Source: a bacterium
GTDB taxonomy: Bacteria; Patescibacteriota; Patescibacteriia; JACPHY01
Length of the DNA stretch: 64,000 bases
NCBI GenBank assembly: GCA_030646955.1
Contig: JAUSKM010000015.1
Span: 285 to 64,284, forward strand
Direction: 5' to 3'
The position numbers and the translations under genes were made by a program. Of this stretch, positions 1,069 to 48,242 are shown in pieces; within the stretch, counting starts at the first letter, position 1, and each line of letters opens with the position of its first letter. The notes below the pieces were generated by a model that had not been told where the DNA came from, ran no database searches, and saw nothing but the letters and a program-made list of their open reading frames with translations.

Positions 1069-1266
1069 GTCATTTCGACAAGTCCGCGAGGAGAAATCTC
1101 ACCCATCCTTCCCGTCATTTCGACCGACGGAGTCCTCGAGGGAGTGGAGAAATCTCACCCATGCGTCGAACGGGCTCGAAATGACGGGGAGGAGAGCGGC
1201 GCGAGATTCCTCGGTCCCTCTTCGCGCGCGGAGCGCTTCGGAAGGACAAGCAGACCTCGGAATGAC
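1069..1266. repeat. Cluster of about 4 GTCATT..AATC repeat units (family T)
   Basis: Units: gtcatttcgacaagtccgcgaggagaaatctcac (1069-1102); gtcatttcgaccgacgg...ggagaaatctcac (1114-1158); an inverted half ctcgaaatgac (1175-1185); and an inverted long unit gcgagattcctcgg...cctcggaatgac (1201-1266). The cluster fills the rnhA-recJ spacer. Confidence 0.8.
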
Positions 1267-3225: not shown

Positions 3226-5157
3226 TCACCGCTTGAGCACGGCGATGTAGGCCTCCGGGGGGAGGTCAACACGGCCGGTGGCGCGCATGGCTTTCTTGCC
3301 TTTCTTCTGCTTCTCCAGGAGCTTCTTCTTGCGCGTAACGTCGCCGCCGTAGAGACCGGCAGTGACGTCCTTGCGGAGCGGCGAGATGCGGGCGCTGGCG
3401 ACAATCTTGCCACCGATCGCCGCCTGAATGCGCACCTCAAACTGGTGGCGCGGGATCACGTCCTTGAGCCGCTCGACGATCCGCCGCCCCACCTGCTGCG
3501 CTTCGTCCTCGTACACAATTGTCGCGAGCGATTCCTCTGGTTCGTCCACAACAAAAATGTCGAGGCGCCGCACGTTCGCCTCGCGGTGCTCGGAAATTTC
3601 GTAATTCATGGACGCGTACCCCTGGGAAACACTCTTGAGCCGATCATAAAAATCCACCAGCACCTTCGCAAGCGGCAGCTCGTACTTCAGGAGCGCGCGC
3701 CGTTGCCCCTCGATGCCGCCGGCAAGGTACTCCGTGGTGCGGTAGGTGCCGCGGTACTCCTGGCAGAGCTGCATGAGCCCGCCCACGTACTGCTCTGGCG
3801 TCACGATGTCCATGCGCACCCACGGCTCCTCAATTGCCGCGATGGACGACGGGTCCGGCAGCTCCTGCGGCGAACGGATGACTTCTCGCGCGCTGCTGTC
3901 CGCTTGGTGTTGCCGGCGCACCCAGTATGCAACACTCGGCACCGTCACCACCACGTCCATGTTGTGCTCGCGGATAAGCCGCTCCCGGAACACGTCCAGG
4001 TGGAGGAGGCCCAAGAATCCGCAGCGGAACCCCACGCCCAGTGCCTGCGAATGCTCCGGCTCCGCGACAAGCGCAGCATCGTTGAGGCGTAGCTGATCAA
4101 TGGCATCACGGAGCTGTTCCGTTTCATCCGAGTTCTTGGGGAACACGCCAGCGAACACCATGGGCCGCACGTCCTTGTACCCGGGGAGCGGCGCGGTTGC
4201 CGCGTACTTCGCGCCCGTCATAGTATCGCCAACGCGCACGCTTCGGATGTCCTTGAGGCCCGTCACGATGTATCCGATCTCCCCCGGCCCCACCTCGTCC
4301 GTCGCATAGAGCTTGGGGTTAAACGATCCCACCTCGCTGGCCTCTACCACCGTACCGGTGGTGAAGAATTTGAGTTTATCACCGCGCGCAACCGATCCGT
4401 CCACCACGCGCACATACGCGATGACGCCCCGAAAATCGTCGTACACAGAATCAAAAATGAGTGCGCGCAATCTCCGATCCCCCACCTCATCTTGAGGGGG
4501 GGGCGTCCGCACGGGTGCCGGTACCCGCTCCACCACCGCGTCGAGCAACATCGCAACGCCCTCGCCCGTCTTTCCGGAGACGGCAAGAATCTCCTCACGC
4601 GCGCATCCCAACAGCTCCATGATTTCCTGCGCCGTGCGCTCAACGTCCGCCGCCGGCAGATCAATTTTGTTGATCGCCGGAATAATGACGAGGTCCTGCT
4701 CCATCGCCAAGTACAGGTTCGCAATCGTCTGCGCCTGCACACCCTGCGTCGCATCTACGAGCAGGATTGCTCCCTCCACTGCCGCAAGCGAACGCGAGAC
4801 CTCGTACGTGAAGTCCACATGCCCGGGCGTGTCGATGAGGTGGAATATGTACTCCTCCTGATGATCCCCCACCTCCCGCTCGTCTGCGTCCGCCGGAGCG
4901 CGGAGGGAGGAGGGGCGAGGGGGGGTGGGCGTCCGCATCGTTCCGCCATGCGCGCCCAGCGTCCATCGCATGCGGACTGGCGCCAGCTTGATCGTAATCC
5001 CCCGCTCCTGCTCCAGGTCCATCTGGTCCAGCGTTTGCTGCTTCATGTCCCGGCTACTCACCGTTCCCGTGAGCTCCAACATCCGGTCCGCCAGCGTGGA
5101 TTTGCCGTGGTCAATGTGGGCGATGATGCAAAAATTGCGAATGGATGATGATTCCAT
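3226..5157 (-). CDS. lepA: Elongation factor 4 (LepA)
   Basis: MESSSIRNFCIIAHIDHGKSTLADRML, DTPGHVDF and NKIDLP GTPase motifs, with full-length LepA-like order to the C-terminus. Start trimmed from 5394 to the ATG at 5157. It contains an extra segment of about 30 aa before DTPGH (see findings). Confidence 0.95.
   Translation of the reverse strand: MESSSIRNFCIIAHIDHGKSTLADRMLELTGTVSSRDMKQQTLDQMDLEQERGITIKLAPVRMRWTLGAHGGTMRTPTPPRPSSLRAPADADEREVGDHQEEYIFHLIDTPGHVDFTYEVSRSLAAVEGAILLVDATQGVQAQTIANLYLAMEQDLVIIPAINKIDLPAADVERTAQEIMELLGCAREEILAVSGKTGEGVAMLLDAVVERVPAPVRTPPPQDEVGDRRLRALIFDSVYDDFRGVIAYVRVVDGSVARGDKLKFFTTGTVVEASEVGSFNPKLYATDEVGPGEIGYIVTGLKDIRSVRVGDTMTGAKYAATAPLPGYKDVRPMVFAGVFPKNSDETEQLRDAIDQLRLNDAALVAEPEHSQALGVGFRCGFLGLLHLDVFRERLIREHNMDVVVTVPSVAYWVRRQHQADSSAREVIRSPQELPDPSSIAAIEEPWVRMDIVTPEQYVGGLMQLCQEYRGTYRTTEYLAGGIEGQRRALLKYELPLAKVLVDFYDRLKSVSQGYASMNYEISEHREANVRRLDIFVVDEPEESLATIVYEDEAQQVGRRIVERLKDVIPRHQFEVRIQAAIGGKIVASARISPLRKDVTAGLYGGDVTRKKKLLEKQKKGKKAMRATGRVDLPPEAYIAVLKR
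4866..4930. repeat. G/C-tract element inside lepA
   Basis: cccccacctcccgc...gcggagggaggaggggcgagggggggtgggc. Translated in the lepA frame as RTPTPPRPSSLRAPADADEREVGD. Confidence 0.6.
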
Positions 5158-7815: not shown

Positions 7816-7837
7816 ACTTTGACAATAAAATTGGTGC

Positions 7838-7868
7838 GTGTGAGATTGCTTCGCATGCTCGCAATGAC
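7838..7868. repeat. Single family-T repeat unit (TTGC/GCAA type)
   Basis: gtgtgagattgcttcgcatgctcgcaatgac. Its reverse complement is gtcattgcgagcatgcgaagcaatctcacac. Confidence 0.8.
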
Positions 7869-9862: not shown

Positions 9863-9942
9863 GTCATTTCGAACGCAGCGAGAAATCTCACACGATCCAA
9901 TAACTGCCGACACGCGAGATTGCTTCGCGGACTCGCAATGAC
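9863..9942. repeat. Inverted pair of family-T units (TTTC type + TTGC type)
   Basis: gtcatttcgaacgcagcgagaaatctcacacg (9863-9894) and cacgcgagattgcttcgcggactcgcaatgac (9911-9942). Confidence 0.8.
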
Positions 9943-14095: not shown

Positions 14096-14180
14096 AGCTT
14101 CGTGATACCTACCAAGAGGACGAAATGCTCAAGAATCGCAACGCTTCATCTTGACCGTTGTGCTCCCAAGTGTACCAAAA

Positions 14181-14212
14181 GTAATCGGACCACCCAAGGG
14201 TGATCCGATTAC
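14181..14212 (-). terminator. Terminator hairpin immediately 3' of tRNA-Gln
   Basis: gtaatcgga c caccc aa gggtg a tccgattac, followed on the minus strand by TTTTGG. Confidence 0.7.
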
Positions 14213-14214
14213 TT

Positions 14215-14285
14215 CTCGGGGACCTGGATTCGAACCAAGATAAACGGATTCAGAGTCCGTTGTCCTACCATTAGACGATCCCCGA
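14215..14285 (-). tRNA. tRNA-Gln (anticodon CUG)
   Basis: Minus strand: TCGGGGA TC GTCT AATGGTA GGAC A ACGGA CTCTGAA TCCGT TTAT CTTGG TTCGAAT CCAGG TCCCCGA G. The cloverleaf was folded by hand. The acceptor pairs 7/7. Confidence 0.9.
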
Positions 14286-14368: not shown

Positions 14369-16171
14369 CTACTCCATAATGGGCGCGGCTGCGGTGCCTC
14401 GTGCCGGTTCGCTCGCTGCGATGACGCGGGAAGAAGCGAACACCTCCAGGGCGGCGTCAACGGTGGTGTCGCCGGTGGCGGGGCGGCAGGCGCGGTCGAG
14501 CTCTTCAAAGTGCTCCACCGCAATCGCGACGGGATCCAGGTGGAGGGGCGTGCCGACGATGCGTGCGATGGCGCTGGTGAGCGGCTCTATGATGCCGGGC
14601 TGCCGCACTTTCTCCGCGTGGAGCTTGTAGCGGAAGCCGATGGTGAGCGTCCCGTCTGCAATGCGTTGCGGGCGACCGCCTTCCAGGAGGTACGGGATGG
14701 AGCGGTTGACGTCCGCGAGATCGCGGATGATGTGGTGCCATTGTTGCTGGACTTTCGAGAGCGCCTCGGTGGCGCTCTGGATGACGGTGGATGTTGGAAG
14801 TTGCTCCCTCCTCCCGGCGGAAGGGGGAGGAATAAAACGCACCCCCTCTGACTCCCCCTCTTGAAGAGGGGGAGGAACCGGATCGGATGTATCTGTTACC
14901 GTCGTTGGGAGTTTGATGCTTGCAGGGGTACGAGCGCGCGAGGCGTGTTGGGGGGTACGGGCTGCACCGCCGGTGGTGGCGGGTGGAGCATCGTCGTCAT
15001 TGCTCCGCGATGCGTCTCGCTGAGACGAGGCGAGCTGCGCGGGATTCATTTTGCCTGGTGATGCGCTCGCTGCGGGCGCTGCGGGAACGAATGGGGAGCG
15101 CGCGAGGAGCGTAAGGACGGCAACCTCGAGGAGGAAGAACGGACGGTCTGCACGACCGATGCGATCCAGGAGTTCCGTGAACATGCGAAGCGCGAACACC
15201 TGTGCCGTCGCAACGGCACCTTGCTGGGCGGCAGCGCGTGCGGCGCTGCGCAGCTCGTTGATGATGTCGCGACAAAACGCATCCGCATCGCATCCCTCGG
15301 CTGATGCAGCATCGAGCGTGGCCAGGGCCAATGCGGTGTCGCCGGCACCAACCGCGCGAAGCAGCGTCTGGACATGCACCATGTTTGATTGCGGGAGCAC
15401 GAGCGCGGCAACATCGGCCGTCACTCGCTTCCCGCCCACCGCCATGAGCTGCCCCAACAGGGATTCTGCGTCACGCACGGAGCCGTCTGCCGCGCGGACT
15501 ACCTGCGCGAGCACCTCGTCATCCACGGCAACATCCTCTACCCCTGCAAGCATCCGGAGCCGCTCCGTGAGCGTCCCATCCCCCACGCGCCGGAACGTAA
15601 AATGCTGGCACCGTGACGTGATCGTCTCCGGCACCTTCTGCATTTCCGTTGTCGCAAGGATGAAGTGGACGTGCTCTGGCGGCTCCTCCAGCGTCTTGAG
15701 GAGCGCATTAAAGGACGCCGTCGAGAGCATGTGCACCTCGTCAATGATGTACACCTTCTTTGCTGCAACTGCGGGGGCGATACGCACCGCCTCGATGATG
15801 TACTCACGCACCTTCTCCACCTGCGTGTTGGATGCCGCATCAATCTCCACGACATCCATGCAACGTCCTGCGGTAATTTCCTCGCACCGGATGCAGGCGT
15901 TACAAGGCACGGGAAGTGTTTGCTTCGACCGGTGCTTCGCGCGAGTTTCTTCGTCGCTCCGCTCCTCGGAATGACGAGGAGCGAGGCAATTCACCGCCTT
16001 CGCCAGGAGCCGCGCGGTGGTGGTCTTTCCAACGCCGCGCGGACCGGAGAAAAGGTACGCATGCGCAACACGACCCGCCGCGATAGCCGCGACGAGCGTG
16101 CGCGTGACATGCTCCTGCCCCACGACGTCCTCAAACGTCTGCGGGCGATGCTTACGATACAGTACGGGCAT
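14369..16171 (-). CDS. dnaX: DNA polymerase III subunit gamma/tau
   Basis: MPVLYRKHRPQTFEDVVGQEHV, Walker A GPRGVGKTT, DEVHML, TSRCQ. Start trimmed to the ATG at 16171. It carries two repeat-derived segments (features at 14805 and 15941). Confidence 0.9.
   Translation of the reverse strand: MPVLYRKHRPQTFEDVVGQEHVTRTLVAAIAAGRVAHAYLFSGPRGVGKTTTARLLAKAVNCLAPRHSEERSDEETRAKHRSKQTLPVPCNACIRCEEITAGRCMDVVEIDAASNTQVEKVREYIIEAVRIAPAVAAKKVYIIDEVHMLSTASFNALLKTLEEPPEHVHFILATTEMQKVPETITSRCQHFTFRRVGDGTLTERLRMLAGVEDVAVDDEVLAQVVRAADGSVRDAESLLGQLMAVGGKRVTADVAALVLPQSNMVHVQTLLRAVGAGDTALALATLDAASAEGCDADAFCRDIINELRSAARAAAQQGAVATAQVFALRMFTELLDRIGRADRPFFLLEVAVLTLLARSPFVPAAPAASASPGKMNPAQLASSQRDASRSNDDDAPPATTGGAARTPQHASRARTPASIKLPTTVTDTSDPVPPPLQEGESEGVRFIPPPSAGRREQLPTSTVIQSATEALSKVQQQWHHIIRDLADVNRSIPYLLEGGRPQRIADGTLTIGFRYKLHAEKVRQPGIIEPLTSAIARIVGTPLHLDPVAIAVEHFEELDRACRPATGDTTVDAALEVFASSRVIAASEPARGTAAAPIME
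14805..14874. repeat. Two adjacent G/C-tract hairpins inside the dnaX 3' half
   Basis: ctccctcctcccggcggaagggggagga and ctccccctcttgaagagggggag. Translated as PPLQEGESEGVRFIPPPSAGRRE. Confidence 0.65.
15941..15975. repeat. Family-T repeat unit inside the dnaX zinc-module region
   Basis: The reverse complement gtcattccgaggagcggagcgacgaagaaactcgcg is near-identical to the intergenic unit gtcattgcgaggagcgaagcgacgaagcaatcccgg at 24924-24961. Translated as RHSEERSDEETRA. Confidence 0.75.
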
Positions 16172-23927: not shown

Positions 23928-24176
23928 TCCTAGCTGCTCCACGCGAGATCCCTGGACGATCCTCGGAATGACGAGGAAAGGAAACTCTGTATGACGGGAG
24001 ATTAAAAGGGGGACCTCTGCAAAAGTTGTGTTATTGCGAGCCGAACCCGTGAAGCGTGGCAATCCCGGCGTTAGGTTGACCGAGATTGCGGAGCCTGTCC
24101 CGAGTACGCGATGGATCCGCGTGTGTGACTCCTCACCATGACACCGTAGGGTTTTTTGGAGGTCTCAAGGGACAAT

Positions 24177-24704
24177 CTACATCCGCTCCTCCCGTGGCCG
24201 ACGCGCGAGCACCATCGTGAGAATGGGGAGCACGATCCAAAGTGAACGCGCGGTATCCGTGAGGAACGCAGCGCGGGTCACCGGCGCGAACTGCTGCGTG
24301 ATGGTGGCGGGGAGGAACGAGAGCGTCACGGACACGAGCAATCCAACGTGGAGGATACTGAATACGAACACCTGCCAGAACGGCCCATCGTACCCGCCAA
24401 TCGCCCACGACATCGCGCTGCGGGAGAGCAGGAAAAAAATGAAGAGCAGCACGCCGAGGAATACCGTCACACGGAACACGAACGATGGCCCCACCGCTAC
24501 CTGCACCATTGTTCCGCTCACCTCATGGAACCACGGCACGGTGTGTACAACCGCGAGCGCCATGTAAATGGCCACGATGATCGCCAAAATCCGGTCACGT
24601 CCCAACGAGACGCCGTAGAGCAAAGAAAAAACGACAAAGAACAGGATGATGAAGAGATCCCACGTTGGCGAAGCAAAATTGAACTGAGGAAGCCAAGAAG
24701 ACAT
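24177..24704 (-). CDS. Hypothetical polytopic membrane protein
   Basis: 175 aa with about 5 hydrophobic helices (WDLFIILFFVVFSLLYGV..., ILAIIVAIYMALAVV...). No motif recognised. Confidence 0.55.
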   Translation of the reverse strand: MSSWLPQFNFASPTWDLFIILFFVVFSLLYGVSLGRDRILAIIVAIYMALAVVHTVPWFHEVSGTMVQVAVGPSFVFRVTVFLGVLLFIFFLLSRSAMSWAIGGYDGPFWQVFVFSILHVGLLVSVTLSFLPATITQQFAPVTRAAFLTDTARSLWIVLPILTMVLARRPREERM

Positions 24705-24803
24705 ACTACTGCGCAGTCATCCACAGTATAGCACGCTGGGCAGAGTACGCACCGTAGAAATAATTTCTGAACGGGATAGAGGACGTTGTGGGTACCCTTG
24801 ATA

Positions 24804-24961
24804 GCCGGAATTGCCACGTCGAGGACTCCTCGCAATGACAATACCGGTGTCATTGCGAGTCCGCGAAGCAATCCCGGCCATGTGCAGCACTGTGCTGCGT
24901 CGCCATCGCAAGAGTCCTGCTATGGCCGGGATTGCTTCGTCGCTTCGCTCCTCGCAATGAC
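24804..24961. repeat. Three family-T units, two of which form a long hairpin
   Basis: gccggaattgccacgtcgaggactcctcgcaatgac (24804-24839) faces gtcattgcgagtccgcgaagcaatcccggcc (24849-24879). A third, inverted unit ggccgggattgcttcgtcgcttcgctcctcgcaatgac lies at 24924-24961. Confidence 0.85.
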
Positions 24962-24998
24962 AACGTGGGCGTGACGAGGGGAATGACGGCTTCACGTA

Positions 24999-26090
24999 TT
25001 ACTCCGCGCTCCGTAGATCCTCCCACAGTTGCTTTGCTTTCCGCGAGAGCTTCTCGGGGATCTTCACGTCTACGGTGACGATGTGATCGCCGCGGCTGCC
25101 ACTGCGCCTTGGCACGCCCTTATGTTTCAATCGAAGCTGATCACCGGGCTGCGTGCCCGTAGGGATTTTGAGCGCGACATCGCCGTCCACCGTGGGAACA
25201 TCCACGGTGTCCCCAAGTGCCGCTTGCGGCGCGCTGACTGCCACCTGCGACCGAATCGTCTCGCCGTCGCGCGTGAACCGTGCATCGGGACGCACGCGAA
25301 GACGTACGTAGAGGCTCCCCGCCGCGCCGCCACGCCCTGCTGCTTCCCCGCCGCCACGCATCTCCAGCACGGTGCCGTCGTCCACGCCCGGAGGAACCTC
25401 AATCGCGAGGTCATCCGAGCGCACCTGCGTCCCGCTCCCACGGCACGTCGCGCACTTCGTTTTTGGTACCTTGCCCGCACCCTCGCACGCCGGACACGCA
25501 CGCACCTGCTGGAATGCGCCAAAGATGGTCTGCTGGACCTGTCGCACACGACCTGCGCCGCCGCATTGGCTGCACGATTGCACGTCCGTCCCCTTCTCCG
25601 CGCCGGTCCCGTGGCACTCTCGACACTCCACCCGCCGCTCCAACGTGAGTGTTTTGCGCACGCCAAAAATCGCCTCCGCAAAATGAATCTCCATCGCAAC
25701 TTCCAAATCCCGCCCGCGCCGCTGTCGAGCGCCGCCGCGCTGCCCCATCCCAAAGATGTCGCCGAGGCCGCCGCTAAAAGCCCCCGAGAAGAGGTCCTCA
25801 AAGTTCACGCCGGTCGCCTCCGCCCAATTGGAAAAATCGCCGAAGCCCTCAAAGCCCCGGAACCCGCCCTGCGCGCGCGCCTGCTCAAACGTGTGGCCGT
25901 ACTGATCGTACTGCTGGCGCTTCTCCACGTTTGAGAGAATCTGGTACGCCTCGCTGATTTCCTTGAATTTTTCCGGATCCCCACCCTTGTCCGGATGATG
26001 CTGCTGCGCGAGCTTCCGAAATGCGCGCTTCACCTCATCCGCCGATGCGGATTTAGCAACGCCGAGTGTATTGTAGTAGTCCTTGGCCAT
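24999..26090 (-). CDS. dnaJ: Chaperone DnaJ
   Basis: J domain (YYNTLGV...HHPDKGGD), a G/F region, four CxxCxGxG zinc motifs and a C-terminal substrate-binding domain. Confidence 0.95.
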   Translation of the reverse strand: MAKDYYNTLGVAKSASADEVKRAFRKLAQQHHPDKGGDPEKFKEISEAYQILSNVEKRQQYDQYGHTFEQARAQGGFRGFEGFGDFSNWAEATGVNFEDLFSGAFSGGLGDIFGMGQRGGARQRRGRDLEVAMEIHFAEAIFGVRKTLTLERRVECRECHGTGAEKGTDVQSCSQCGGAGRVRQVQQTIFGAFQQVRACPACEGAGKVPKTKCATCRGSGTQVRSDDLAIEVPPGVDDGTVLEMRGGGEAAGRGGAAGSLYVRLRVRPDARFTRDGETIRSQVAVSAPQAALGDTVDVPTVDGDVALKIPTGTQPGDQLRLKHKGVPRRSGSRGDHIVTVDVKIPEKLSRKAKQLWEDLRSAE

Positions 26091-29776: not shown

Positions 29777-29857
29777 TCCTTTGCGAGTCCGTGAGGGCGC
29801 AGCAATCTCTCTGCCTGATTGGCCGGGATTACCACGTCGCGGACTCCTCGCAATGAC
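29777..29857. repeat. Two family-T units (one degenerate, one inverted)
   Basis: cctttgcgagtccgtgagggcgcagcaatctctc and ggccgggattaccacgtcgcggactcctcgcaatgac. Confidence 0.7.
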
Positions 29858-45729: not shown

Positions 45730-45878
45730 CCCCTCCCTCCCCGCGCGTACTCGCGGGGGGAGGGAGGGTTAGGGAGGGAGAGGTGGGACGGAATGGCAAC
45801 ATGGTACAGCCCATCCATAGCCACCTCTCCCCCTCCTGCTCCCCCTCTCCCCACGAGTACGTGCGGGGAGGGGGAGGG
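45730..45878. repeat. Inverted pair of long G/C-tract elements (about 150-bp composite palindrome)
   Basis: 45730-45803 (cccctccctccccgcgcgtactcgcggggggagggaggg...) is in the same orientation as 60164-60235. 45806-45878 (acagcccatccatagccacctctccccctcctgctccccctctccccacgagtacgtgcggggagggggaggg) is in the opposite orientation. Confidence 0.85.
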
Positions 45879-48084: not shown

Positions 48085-48242
48085 CGTCACCTTCGAGCGA
48101 TACTTCACTTCCGTCATTTCGAGCGCAGCGAGAAATCTCACACGCAATACTCTATCGAACACGATACGGTTGACATGTACTGCTTACGAATGTTTCTCAA
48201 CCCCCACATCATGTGAGATTCCTCGGCCGACCTCGGAATGAC
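48085..48242. repeat. Family-T units upstream of mraY (one degenerate, one TTTC type, one inverted TTCC type)
   Basis: gtcatttcgagcgcagcgagaaatctcacacg (48113-48144) and tgtgagattcctcggccgacctcggaatgac (48212-48242). Confidence 0.8.

Follow-up and report, generated by a model that had tools for sequence, protein, structure and literature searches.

The window analysed here, a 64,000-nucleotide stretch of contig JAUSKM010000015.1 (assembly GCA_030646955.1) from a Patescibacteria genome, contains on its minus strand a dnaX gene for the gamma/tau subunit of DNA polymerase III, and the zinc-binding module of this gene carries, in frame, a copy of a short palindromic repeat that we call family T. 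The gene product matched Pfam PF13177 (DNA_pol3_delta2; E = 8.9e-39), PF00004 (AAA) and PF22608 (DNAX_ATPase_lid), and thus contains both the AAA+ clamp-loader ATPase domain and the lid domain of DnaX; the E. coli gamma/tau chains matched it with E = 4e-67. Its sequence equals that of P0001 (600 aa), a database protein named ‘DNA polymerase III subunit gamma/tau’ and derived from a bacterial metagenome-assembled genome, and its closest named relatives belong to Candidatus Uhrbacteria (Patescibacteria). The four cysteines of the module, predicted zinc ligands that follow the P-loop helix as in other DnaX proteins, are C62, C90, C93 and C96, and align with C64, C73, C76 and C79 of E. coli. Among 46 aligned DnaX sequences, Cys1, Cys3 and Cys4 (C62, C93 and C96) were invariant and Cys2 (C90) was kept in at least 90%; the invariance of Cys1 argues against the idea, raised in the initial annotation of this DNA as a possible objection, that the first cysteine is no ligand and its spacing free.

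The window protein shares the four cysteines and the fold of domains I–II with E. coli DnaX gamma/tau (PDB 1njf/1njg), but differs in the distance between the first two cysteines, which is 8 residues in E. coli and 27 in the window. The peptide at the module reads ...AKAVNC-LAPRHSEERSDEETRAKHRSKQTLPV-PCNACIRC..., with the spacing C-x27-C-x2-C-x2-C as against C64-x8-C73-x2-C76-x2-C79 in E. coli gamma, and the gap of the pairwise alignment places query residues 63 to 88 opposite E. coli residues 65 to 71. The excess had initially been put at about 24 residues; it is actually 19, of which 13 come from the repeat.

In a family T unit, the head is GTCAT, the outer stem has 5 bp (AT-NNN / N'N'N'-AT), the interior is rich in GA, and a tail completes the unit. 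The minus strand at 15940-15975, GTCATTCCGAGGAGCGGAGCGACGAAGAAACTCGCG, was identical to the unit at 24926-24961 (-) at 29/36 positions without gaps, and five of the seven mismatches fall within the final 8 nt; here the dnaX copy has the alternative tail CTCGCG, which the units at 9942 and 23972 also carry. A hidden Markov model (HMM) built from 17 intergenic units of the window and its relatives, with the dnaX copy left out (alignment A1), was searched with nhmmer against both strands of 146 kb comprising the window and six related loci, and matched dnaX at 15975-15938 (-) over its full length (model positions 1–38 of 40; 21.1 bits, E = 5.6e-5). This was the sole match at E < 0.01 within a recognised gene in the 146 kb, and on 1.17 Mb of dnaX loci, a control set drawn only from unrelated or distant bacterial phyla, the same model gave no match above 13 bits. 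A covariance model built from 19 intergenic units, again excluding the dnaX copy, recovered it with cmsearch at 23.6 bits (E = 2.5e-4). The presence of a repeat unit in frame within the dnaX zinc module, as first proposed from the sequence, was thus borne out.

The head, the interior (GAG-GAGC-GGA-GCGA-C-GAAG) and the tail of the dnaX copy are intact, whereas its outer stem, ATTCC against AGAAA at the canonical position, retains three of five pairs, compared with five of five in all 19 intergenic units. It had the lowest cmsearch score among the significant units of the window, and the segment was predicted to fold into a different hairpin of unremarkable energy (z = -0.8). The dnaX copy is therefore a decayed member of family T, and the loss of its stem fits a release from nucleic-acid constraint, since only protein-level selection would act after capture. 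In the sense orientation, 53 of the 57 reading frames of the units were free of stop codons, so that survival in frame would be easy. A candidate second half-unit, CGAAGCAAAC at 15918-15927, was rejected: it is a 10-mer with one mismatch, and roughly every second match of this kind in the window falls outside the repeats, as expected of chance.

The DNA of six relatives, among which the neighbouring genes are largely shared, was compared with the window. In a DnaX tree built by neighbour joining without the loop, the window protein and P0002 grouped with 100% bootstrap support, P0003 joined them with 87%, and the clade of P0001–P0010 was recovered with 100%. Repeat-like DNA was looked for in the DnaX loops of the sister P0002 (contig L081; 14 aa) and the next relative P0003 (L086; 12 aa), and none was found; an insert shared by related genomes that lack this repeat family had been named beforehand as an outcome that would speak against capture. 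In alignment A4, the window reads CLAPR, then HSEERSDEETRAK, then HRSKQTLPVPC, whereas in L081 CEAGR is followed directly by GTAREAQQVPC, a difference of exactly 13 codons, or 39 nt, which equals one unit in length. Family T units do occur in the intergenic DNA of L081; the sister lineage thus possesses the repeat and lacks the insert. The absence from the sister and the exact 13-codon difference indicate that the insertion is lineage-specific, and the parsimonious reading of these sequences is a gain in the lineage of the window genome after its split from the closest known relative.

Spacing between Cys1 and Cys2 varies widely among homologues. Among the best 120 database matches it was 8 residues in 48 and 10 in 43, with a range of 8–44, and Patescibacteria mostly have 8–10 residues, whereas the ten proteins in the clade to which the window belongs show 27, 14, 12, 37, 37, 18, 13, 20, 44 and 11. 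Loop length is clearly permissive in the window's lineage while the ligands stay conserved, and since homologous loops span 8–44 residues, the insertion is less unexpected than a comparison with E. coli alone would suggest. A degenerate metagenome scan for Cys1...PCNAC returned the known P0004 contig, an unrelated dnaX with a long loop (L091) and chance matches. The L091 gene (2249-2353, minus strand) encodes a Patescibacteria-like DnaX on a contig with a GC content of 0.48; its Cys1–Cys2 loop, ERIQCHVSGVSGSDRDGTKVPMNEAEP, also has 27 residues and holds an unrelated small hairpin, GGGACTAAAGTCCC, with no second copy on its 6.8-kb contig. Five of the metagenome contigs with chance matches (L092, L093, L094, L096 and L098) have in common a conserved AT-rich non-coding stretch, ...AAGGGTTTACGTTAATTTAATGGATCTAACCAAA(A)TCTCACGACATTAACTGAAGACAGCC....

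The structure of the window DnaX was modelled with AlphaFold2 on the 46-sequence alignment (mean predicted local distance difference test score, pLDDT, 90.5; predicted template modelling score 0.83). Foldseek aligned the model to E. coli clamp-loader tau/gamma with template modelling scores (TM-scores) of up to 0.83, and to the isolated gamma domains I–II (1njg) with a target-normalised TM-score of 0.93 at 2.0 Å. Residues 62-93 were modelled without secondary structure, with a mean pLDDT of 71 for residues 61-70, 53 for 71-80 and 68 for 81-90, and values below 50 at residues 69-72. The earlier suggestion that the insert may form a loop protruding from the zinc module agrees with this model (insert pLDDT 53–71), in which the insert is a flexible excursion from an otherwise normal DnaX module.

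Table 1 Features discussed in the text; positions refer to the window unless a contig is named.
Feature	Position	Strand	Details
dnaX coding sequence, DNA polymerase III gamma/tau	14369..16171	-	600 aa; Pfam and E. coli matches
Zinc module	15884..15988	-	Codons: Cys1 15986-15988, Cys2 15902-15904, Cys3 15893-15895, Cys4 15884-15886
Cys1–Cys2 loop, 27 codons	15905..15985	-	LAPRHSEERSDEETRAKHRSKQTLPVP, read from sequence
Repeat unit inside dnaX, sense orientation	15938..15975	-	GTCATTCCGAGGAGCGGAGCGACGAAGAAACTCGCGCG; nhmmer and cmsearch
Codons (13) missing from sister DnaX	15935..15973	-	HSEERSDEETRAK, 39 nt; alignment A4
Unit with which the initial annotation compared the dnaX copy	24923..24961	-	Intergenic; cmsearch 43.3 bits; convergent doublet with 24849-24880, inverted repeat I3
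Intergenic unit	24849..24880	+	cmsearch 36 bits
Intergenic unit	24802..24839	-	cmsearch 35.7 bits
Family unit	7837..7868	-	cmsearch 39.6 bits
Convergent doublet	9863..9942		9863-9894 (+), 9911-9942 (-); between two glyoxalase-like genes
Two units	23940..24071		23940-23972 (-), 24030-24071 (+); cmsearch
Family unit	29820..29857	-	cmsearch 39.5 bits
Convergent doublet	48113..48242		48113-48144 (+), 48210-48242 (-); cmsearch
Three-unit cluster	1069..1266		1069-1105 (+), 1114-1161 (+), 1198-1266 (-, long-loop variant); cmsearch; none in training set
Second loop insert	L084:470-670; L082:10142-10342; L087:10142-10363		Uhrbacteria-like DnaX

Family T comprises at least 15 units in the 64-kb window at E < 1e-3 (cmsearch), at least 14 of them besides the dnaX copy. 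The interior consists of short G-C stems parted by GA/GA steps and ends in a closing loop of 3–4 nt; the tail is C(T/C)C(A/G)C... or CCCGGCC, and the outer stem occurs as ATTGC/GCAAT, ATTTC/GAAAT, ATTCC/GGAAT, ATCCT/AGGAT or ATTCT/AGAAT. In alignment A3, the outer stem was paired in 95/95 cells, with double changes in three of its five pairs; the covariation score was reached by none of 500 shuffles, and slid registers collapsed. The thermodynamic z-scores of single units were not significant, which is explained by the energy model counting tandem G·A pairs as loops, so that the structure is supported by covariation and not by energy. Units such as 48210-48242 (-) and 48113-48144 (+), as well as L084:544-595, fold as a rod in which 1–5-bp stems alternate with GA/GA steps, the latter probably sheared G·A pairs in tandem, and which a GNA or UNCG-like loop closes; further stem-GA modules occur in longer variants. 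Convergent inverted doublets were frequent, both in the window (24849/24961, 48113/48242 and 9863/9942) and in a relative (L082 13348/13432).

Intergenic status was judged from the gene calls of relatives, in which all nine non-dnaX units with such calls (9/9) lay between genes. Apparent placements of window units inside long open reading frames (ORFs) of a greedy longest-ORF map were rejected, as the translations look like antisense artefacts, and in the ORF downstream of 9863-9942 the Pfam match begins at residue 48, which puts those units upstream of the likely true start. In a relative, the intergenic unit at L088:456-493 gives the upstream gene (46-465) its TGA stop (463-465, inside CATCCTGAG). 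No Rfam family reached its gathering score for the repeat: the window matches were three tRNAs only, and the region around 24700-25050 yielded only sub-threshold matches to microRNA-type hairpins. Literature searches with the DNA words of the repeat and its encoded peptide words found nothing relevant, and those on Patescibacteria together with repetitive extragenic palindromic (REP) elements, and on zinc insertion in DnaX, were unproductive. Family T thus appears undescribed in Rfam and the searchable literature. Another palindrome of the window, a 57-nt inverted repeat at 45730-45877 (79% complementary, rich in CCCTCCC/GGGAGGG), is unrelated to it.

Several genes and repeats near dnaX were recorded as well. 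Directly downstream of the window gene lies a tRNA gene (14215-14285, minus strand), overlapped by a 30-nt imperfect inverted repeat (14166-14227). Just downstream of dnaX in L086 (4800-5224), a small GIY-YIG ORF (4956-5153) sits between two tRNA-like copies (GATCGGGGGTCGTCTAACGGTAGGAC); a link between this ORF and the repeat was rejected, because the ORF is bracketed by duplicated tRNA-like sequence and has no family unit. Immediately upstream of P0004 dnaX (L082:9626-9976) is a gene for a 116-aa protein with Pfam matches to bAvd and 23S_rRNA_IVP.

The DnaX proteins P0004 (L082), P0005 (L084) and P0009 (L087) have loops of 37–44 residues that contain a second, longer variant of the family. 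The L084 DNA has the sequence GCGCATCCTGAGCGACCCCGAGCGAAGCGAGGGGGAGTCGAAGGATCTCCCC (CATCCTGAG...CGAAGGATCTC in short form); that of L082 is a close variant of it, and that of L087 is decayed. The L084 insert folds into the rod architecture of the family (AUCCU-GA-GC-GA-CCCC-GA-GC-GAA-GC-GA-GGGG-GA-GUC-GA-AGGAU), and the second insert was the best covariance-model match in its gene, with gene-restricted E values of 0.019 in L084 and 0.052 in L082. It has a 9-nt head and an 11-nt tail in common with the intergenic copy at L087:2253-2323. Compared with the window's insert, it differs in the dnaX codon at which it starts and in stem subfamily: ATTCC with an 18-nt interior in the window, ATCCT with a 32-nt interior in P0004, P0005 and P0009. 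The upstream flank RRxxSDxxA is common to the three proteins, and the second insert is therefore read as one event; P0006 (L088), nested in this group with 85–90% bootstrap support, is without it, reflecting either loss or tree error. Between L084 and L082 the nested fold is kept, with one compensatory pair (C-G -> U-A), and identity by codon position was 0.68/0.70/0.65 in the loop against 0.78/0.81/0.56 gene-wide. This pair and the flat codon-position identity hint at a structural constraint, but with 37 codons these hints are not significant.

Family T extends well beyond this lineage. The exact pattern GTCATTSCGAGGAGCNNNGCGACGWRGSAATC occurred in at least 120 IMG/VR contigs (L099–L218) with GC contents of 0.36–0.71, across which the 32-nt core is almost unchanged (e.g. 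L099:7062-7093). Viral copies are often followed closely by a ribosome-binding site and ATG; some contigs hold several in the same orientation, such as L102 (4) and L104 (3). Other copies are in frame inside genes, at L137:~3549 (-), L207:~5344 (-), L118:3764 and 4109 (-), and L187:224 (-). A single match of an SPP1-type portal protein to PF05133 (E = 1.9e-22) covers residues 16-452 and runs across the inserted LSLRGAQRRSNL; in a TypeIII_RM_meth domain (PF12564, E = 2.3e-17), 67 residues correspond to 56 profile positions, and the unit encodes 11 aa; a Mu-type portal protein also holds an in-frame copy. The three sense frames encode the peptides SLRGAxRRSN, VIARSxATKQS and HCEERSDEAI. The copies in portal proteins and the methylase domain indicate that in-frame capture recurs for family T. 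The original description of the dnaX copy as the capture of a normally intergenic repeat is supported: the intergenic location of the relatives' units and the insert-free sister agree with it, with the qualification that phage genes too contain in-frame copies, so that the family is not strictly intergenic elsewhere. As for mobility, the only Y1_Tnp (IS200/RAYT-like; RAYT, REP-associated tyrosine transposase) gene seen, at L084:11329-12000, has the hairpin AAAAAGACCC(T/C)GGGGTC on either side; a link to family T through this gene was rejected, since the flanking hairpin differs from the family.

Among known systems, Rickettsia palindromic elements (RPEs) are ~100–150 bp long, encode 30–50 residues and form defined, Rickettsia-specific families, each with a conserved encoded peptide (PMC10969869). 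Like them, family T is a small palindromic repeat found between genes and in frame in unrelated, often essential genes, where it would add an extra peptide at places in which the fold tolerates insertion. It is about four times shorter, however (32–40 nt, 11–13 residues), and occurs in Patescibacteria, of the Candidate Phyla Radiation (CPR), and in many viral contigs. The dnaX unit, of 38–39 nt and in a Patescibacterium host, is accordingly no RPE, and the likeness is one of behaviour, its sequence not being known to be related to RPEs. With REP elements and their doublets (REPINs) (PMC3116915, PMC3337134), family T shares short imperfect palindromes, a conserved 5' head, many copies, a typically intergenic location and a frequent arrangement in convergent inverted doublets, and with at least 15 units in 64 kb it matches the description of high-copy short palindromes in inverted doublets. 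In contrast, REP elements have the head GTAG, are mobilised by RAYTs and are extragenic by definition, whereas the head of family T is GTCAT. Bacterial MITEs (short for miniature inverted-repeat transposable elements) within ORFs (ERIC, BOX and Anabaena MITEs; PMC10969869) resemble family T in being non-autonomous and able to make in-frame fusions, but family T is much shorter, and no signature of a terminal inverted repeat plus target-site duplication was seen at the dnaX copy; the doublets do have inverted ends, and the dnaX copy is a singlet.

The best reading of the dnaX insert, to which we give a probability of about 0.8, is selfish DNA that this lineage gained in a permissive loop and tolerates, and not an adaptation. 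A single REP/MITE-like hairpin unit of ~38–39 nt would have inserted in the sense orientation after the fifth codon following Cys1, its 39 nt adding 13 mostly charged residues. Because the host loop tolerates many lengths, the zinc ligands and the AAA+ fold would be left untouched and the protein functional, and the captured copy, freed from the need to form a hairpin, could lose its outer stem while its reading frame was kept. Several points weigh against this reading, in which we infer the mode of insertion, the translation of the unit and its neutrality. Neither a transposase nor any insertion signature was found, and no direct repeat that could represent a target-site duplication is clearly visible in the flanks ...CTCGCTCCTC / unit / AAGCACCGG. 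No RAYT-like gene was found in the window (best tblastn E 0.08, in 64 kb of genome), and no Y1_Tnp homologue in 1 Mb of viral loci carrying the family. P0001 has one member on one contig from a single assembly of the organism, and the exact 5' junction of the insert had 0 matches in JGI metagenomes, so that independent confirmation and an empty-site allele are both lacking. Moreover, all ten clade members have a Cys1–Cys2 loop of at least 11 residues, and there may have been an older loop expansion with later turnover.

That last observation leads to the idea that a unit entered dnaX in the common ancestor of P0001–P0010 and later disappeared or decayed in P0002, P0003 and further members, which would account for clade loops of 11–44 residues compared with 8–10 in most other Patescibacteria. 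We consider this quite improbable, because several independent clean losses would be required, the units of the window and of P0004, P0005 and P0009 differ in subfamily and in the codon at which they start, and the window copy is still recognisable (E ~1e-4 to 1e-5) although synonymous sites have come close to saturation between the window and L081 (third-position identity 0.49). The loop might instead be a preferred landing site, or its peptide or hairpin might have been co-opted, for example as a flexible, charged arm close to the ATP site or as a structure in the dnaX mRNA. The second variant in the same loop, the reading frame shared by both inserts (H-S/P-E...), and the nested fold of L084 and L082 with its compensatory pair and flat codon-position identity all lend weight to this. 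Against them stand the lost outer stem and ordinary fold of the window copy (z = -0.8), the badly decayed L087 version, the nested P0006 without an insert, and many lineages that vary loop length without any repeat; the codon-position effect, over its 37 codons, does not reach significance, and as only dnaX was compared across relatives, recurrence may reflect which insertions survive and not where they land. Landing preference or co-option is thus unlikely.

Misthreading of a repeat copy into dnaX during metagenome assembly deserves mention, since repeats are a classic source of misassembly and the gene comes from a single record of a metagenome-assembled contig. It is nevertheless highly improbable: the dnaX copy is unlike any window copy (best 29/36) and so was not copied from a locus seen here, the insert is exactly 13 codons, stop-free and placed in a dnaX that is colinear on both flanks, and the comparable P0004 insert came out of two independent assemblies, one from ENA and one from JGI. 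A chance or compositional resemblance of a purine-rich, charged coding stretch (EERSDEE) could be entertained on account of the low-complexity unit interior, GAGGAGCGGAGCGACGAAG, but it is scarcely credible, given a full-length match that includes the non-coding-type head GTCAT and tail CTCGCG, the sole in-gene match at E < 0.01 in 146 kb with none comparable in 1.17 Mb of other dnaX loci, and a matching stretch that is exactly what the sister lacks. Tolerated selfish DNA therefore remains the reading we favour. A wider and more tentative view, which we hold possible but doubtful, is that family T is a very widespread, undescribed mobile hairpin of 32–40 nt, a rod whose short stems are parted by tandem G·A mismatches, near-constant in genomes of 36–71% GC, those of phages among them, and repeatedly entering conserved proteins in frame (the DnaX zinc-module loop in two subclades, an SPP1-type portal protein and a Type III methylase domain), that units land in the DnaX loop again and again, and that the hairpin retained in one subclade has a function at the nucleic-acid level.

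The locus offers a clean natural experiment, in which the Cys1–Cys2 loop of the clamp-loader zinc module absorbs 13 to ~36 extra residues. The absorbing protein is essential for replication and belongs to a CPR bacterium with a reduced genome, and its tolerance is useful to DnaX engineering and modelling. The concept of selfish DNA inside protein-coding genes, best known in Rickettsia, is thereby extended to Patescibacteria and phage-like contigs, and to a much smaller element. The dnaX insert is an event of a known kind. The more valuable lead may be the repeat family itself, which shows strong covariation in its stem, hardly changes in sequence between highly dissimilar genomes, and is absent from Rfam and the searchable literature.

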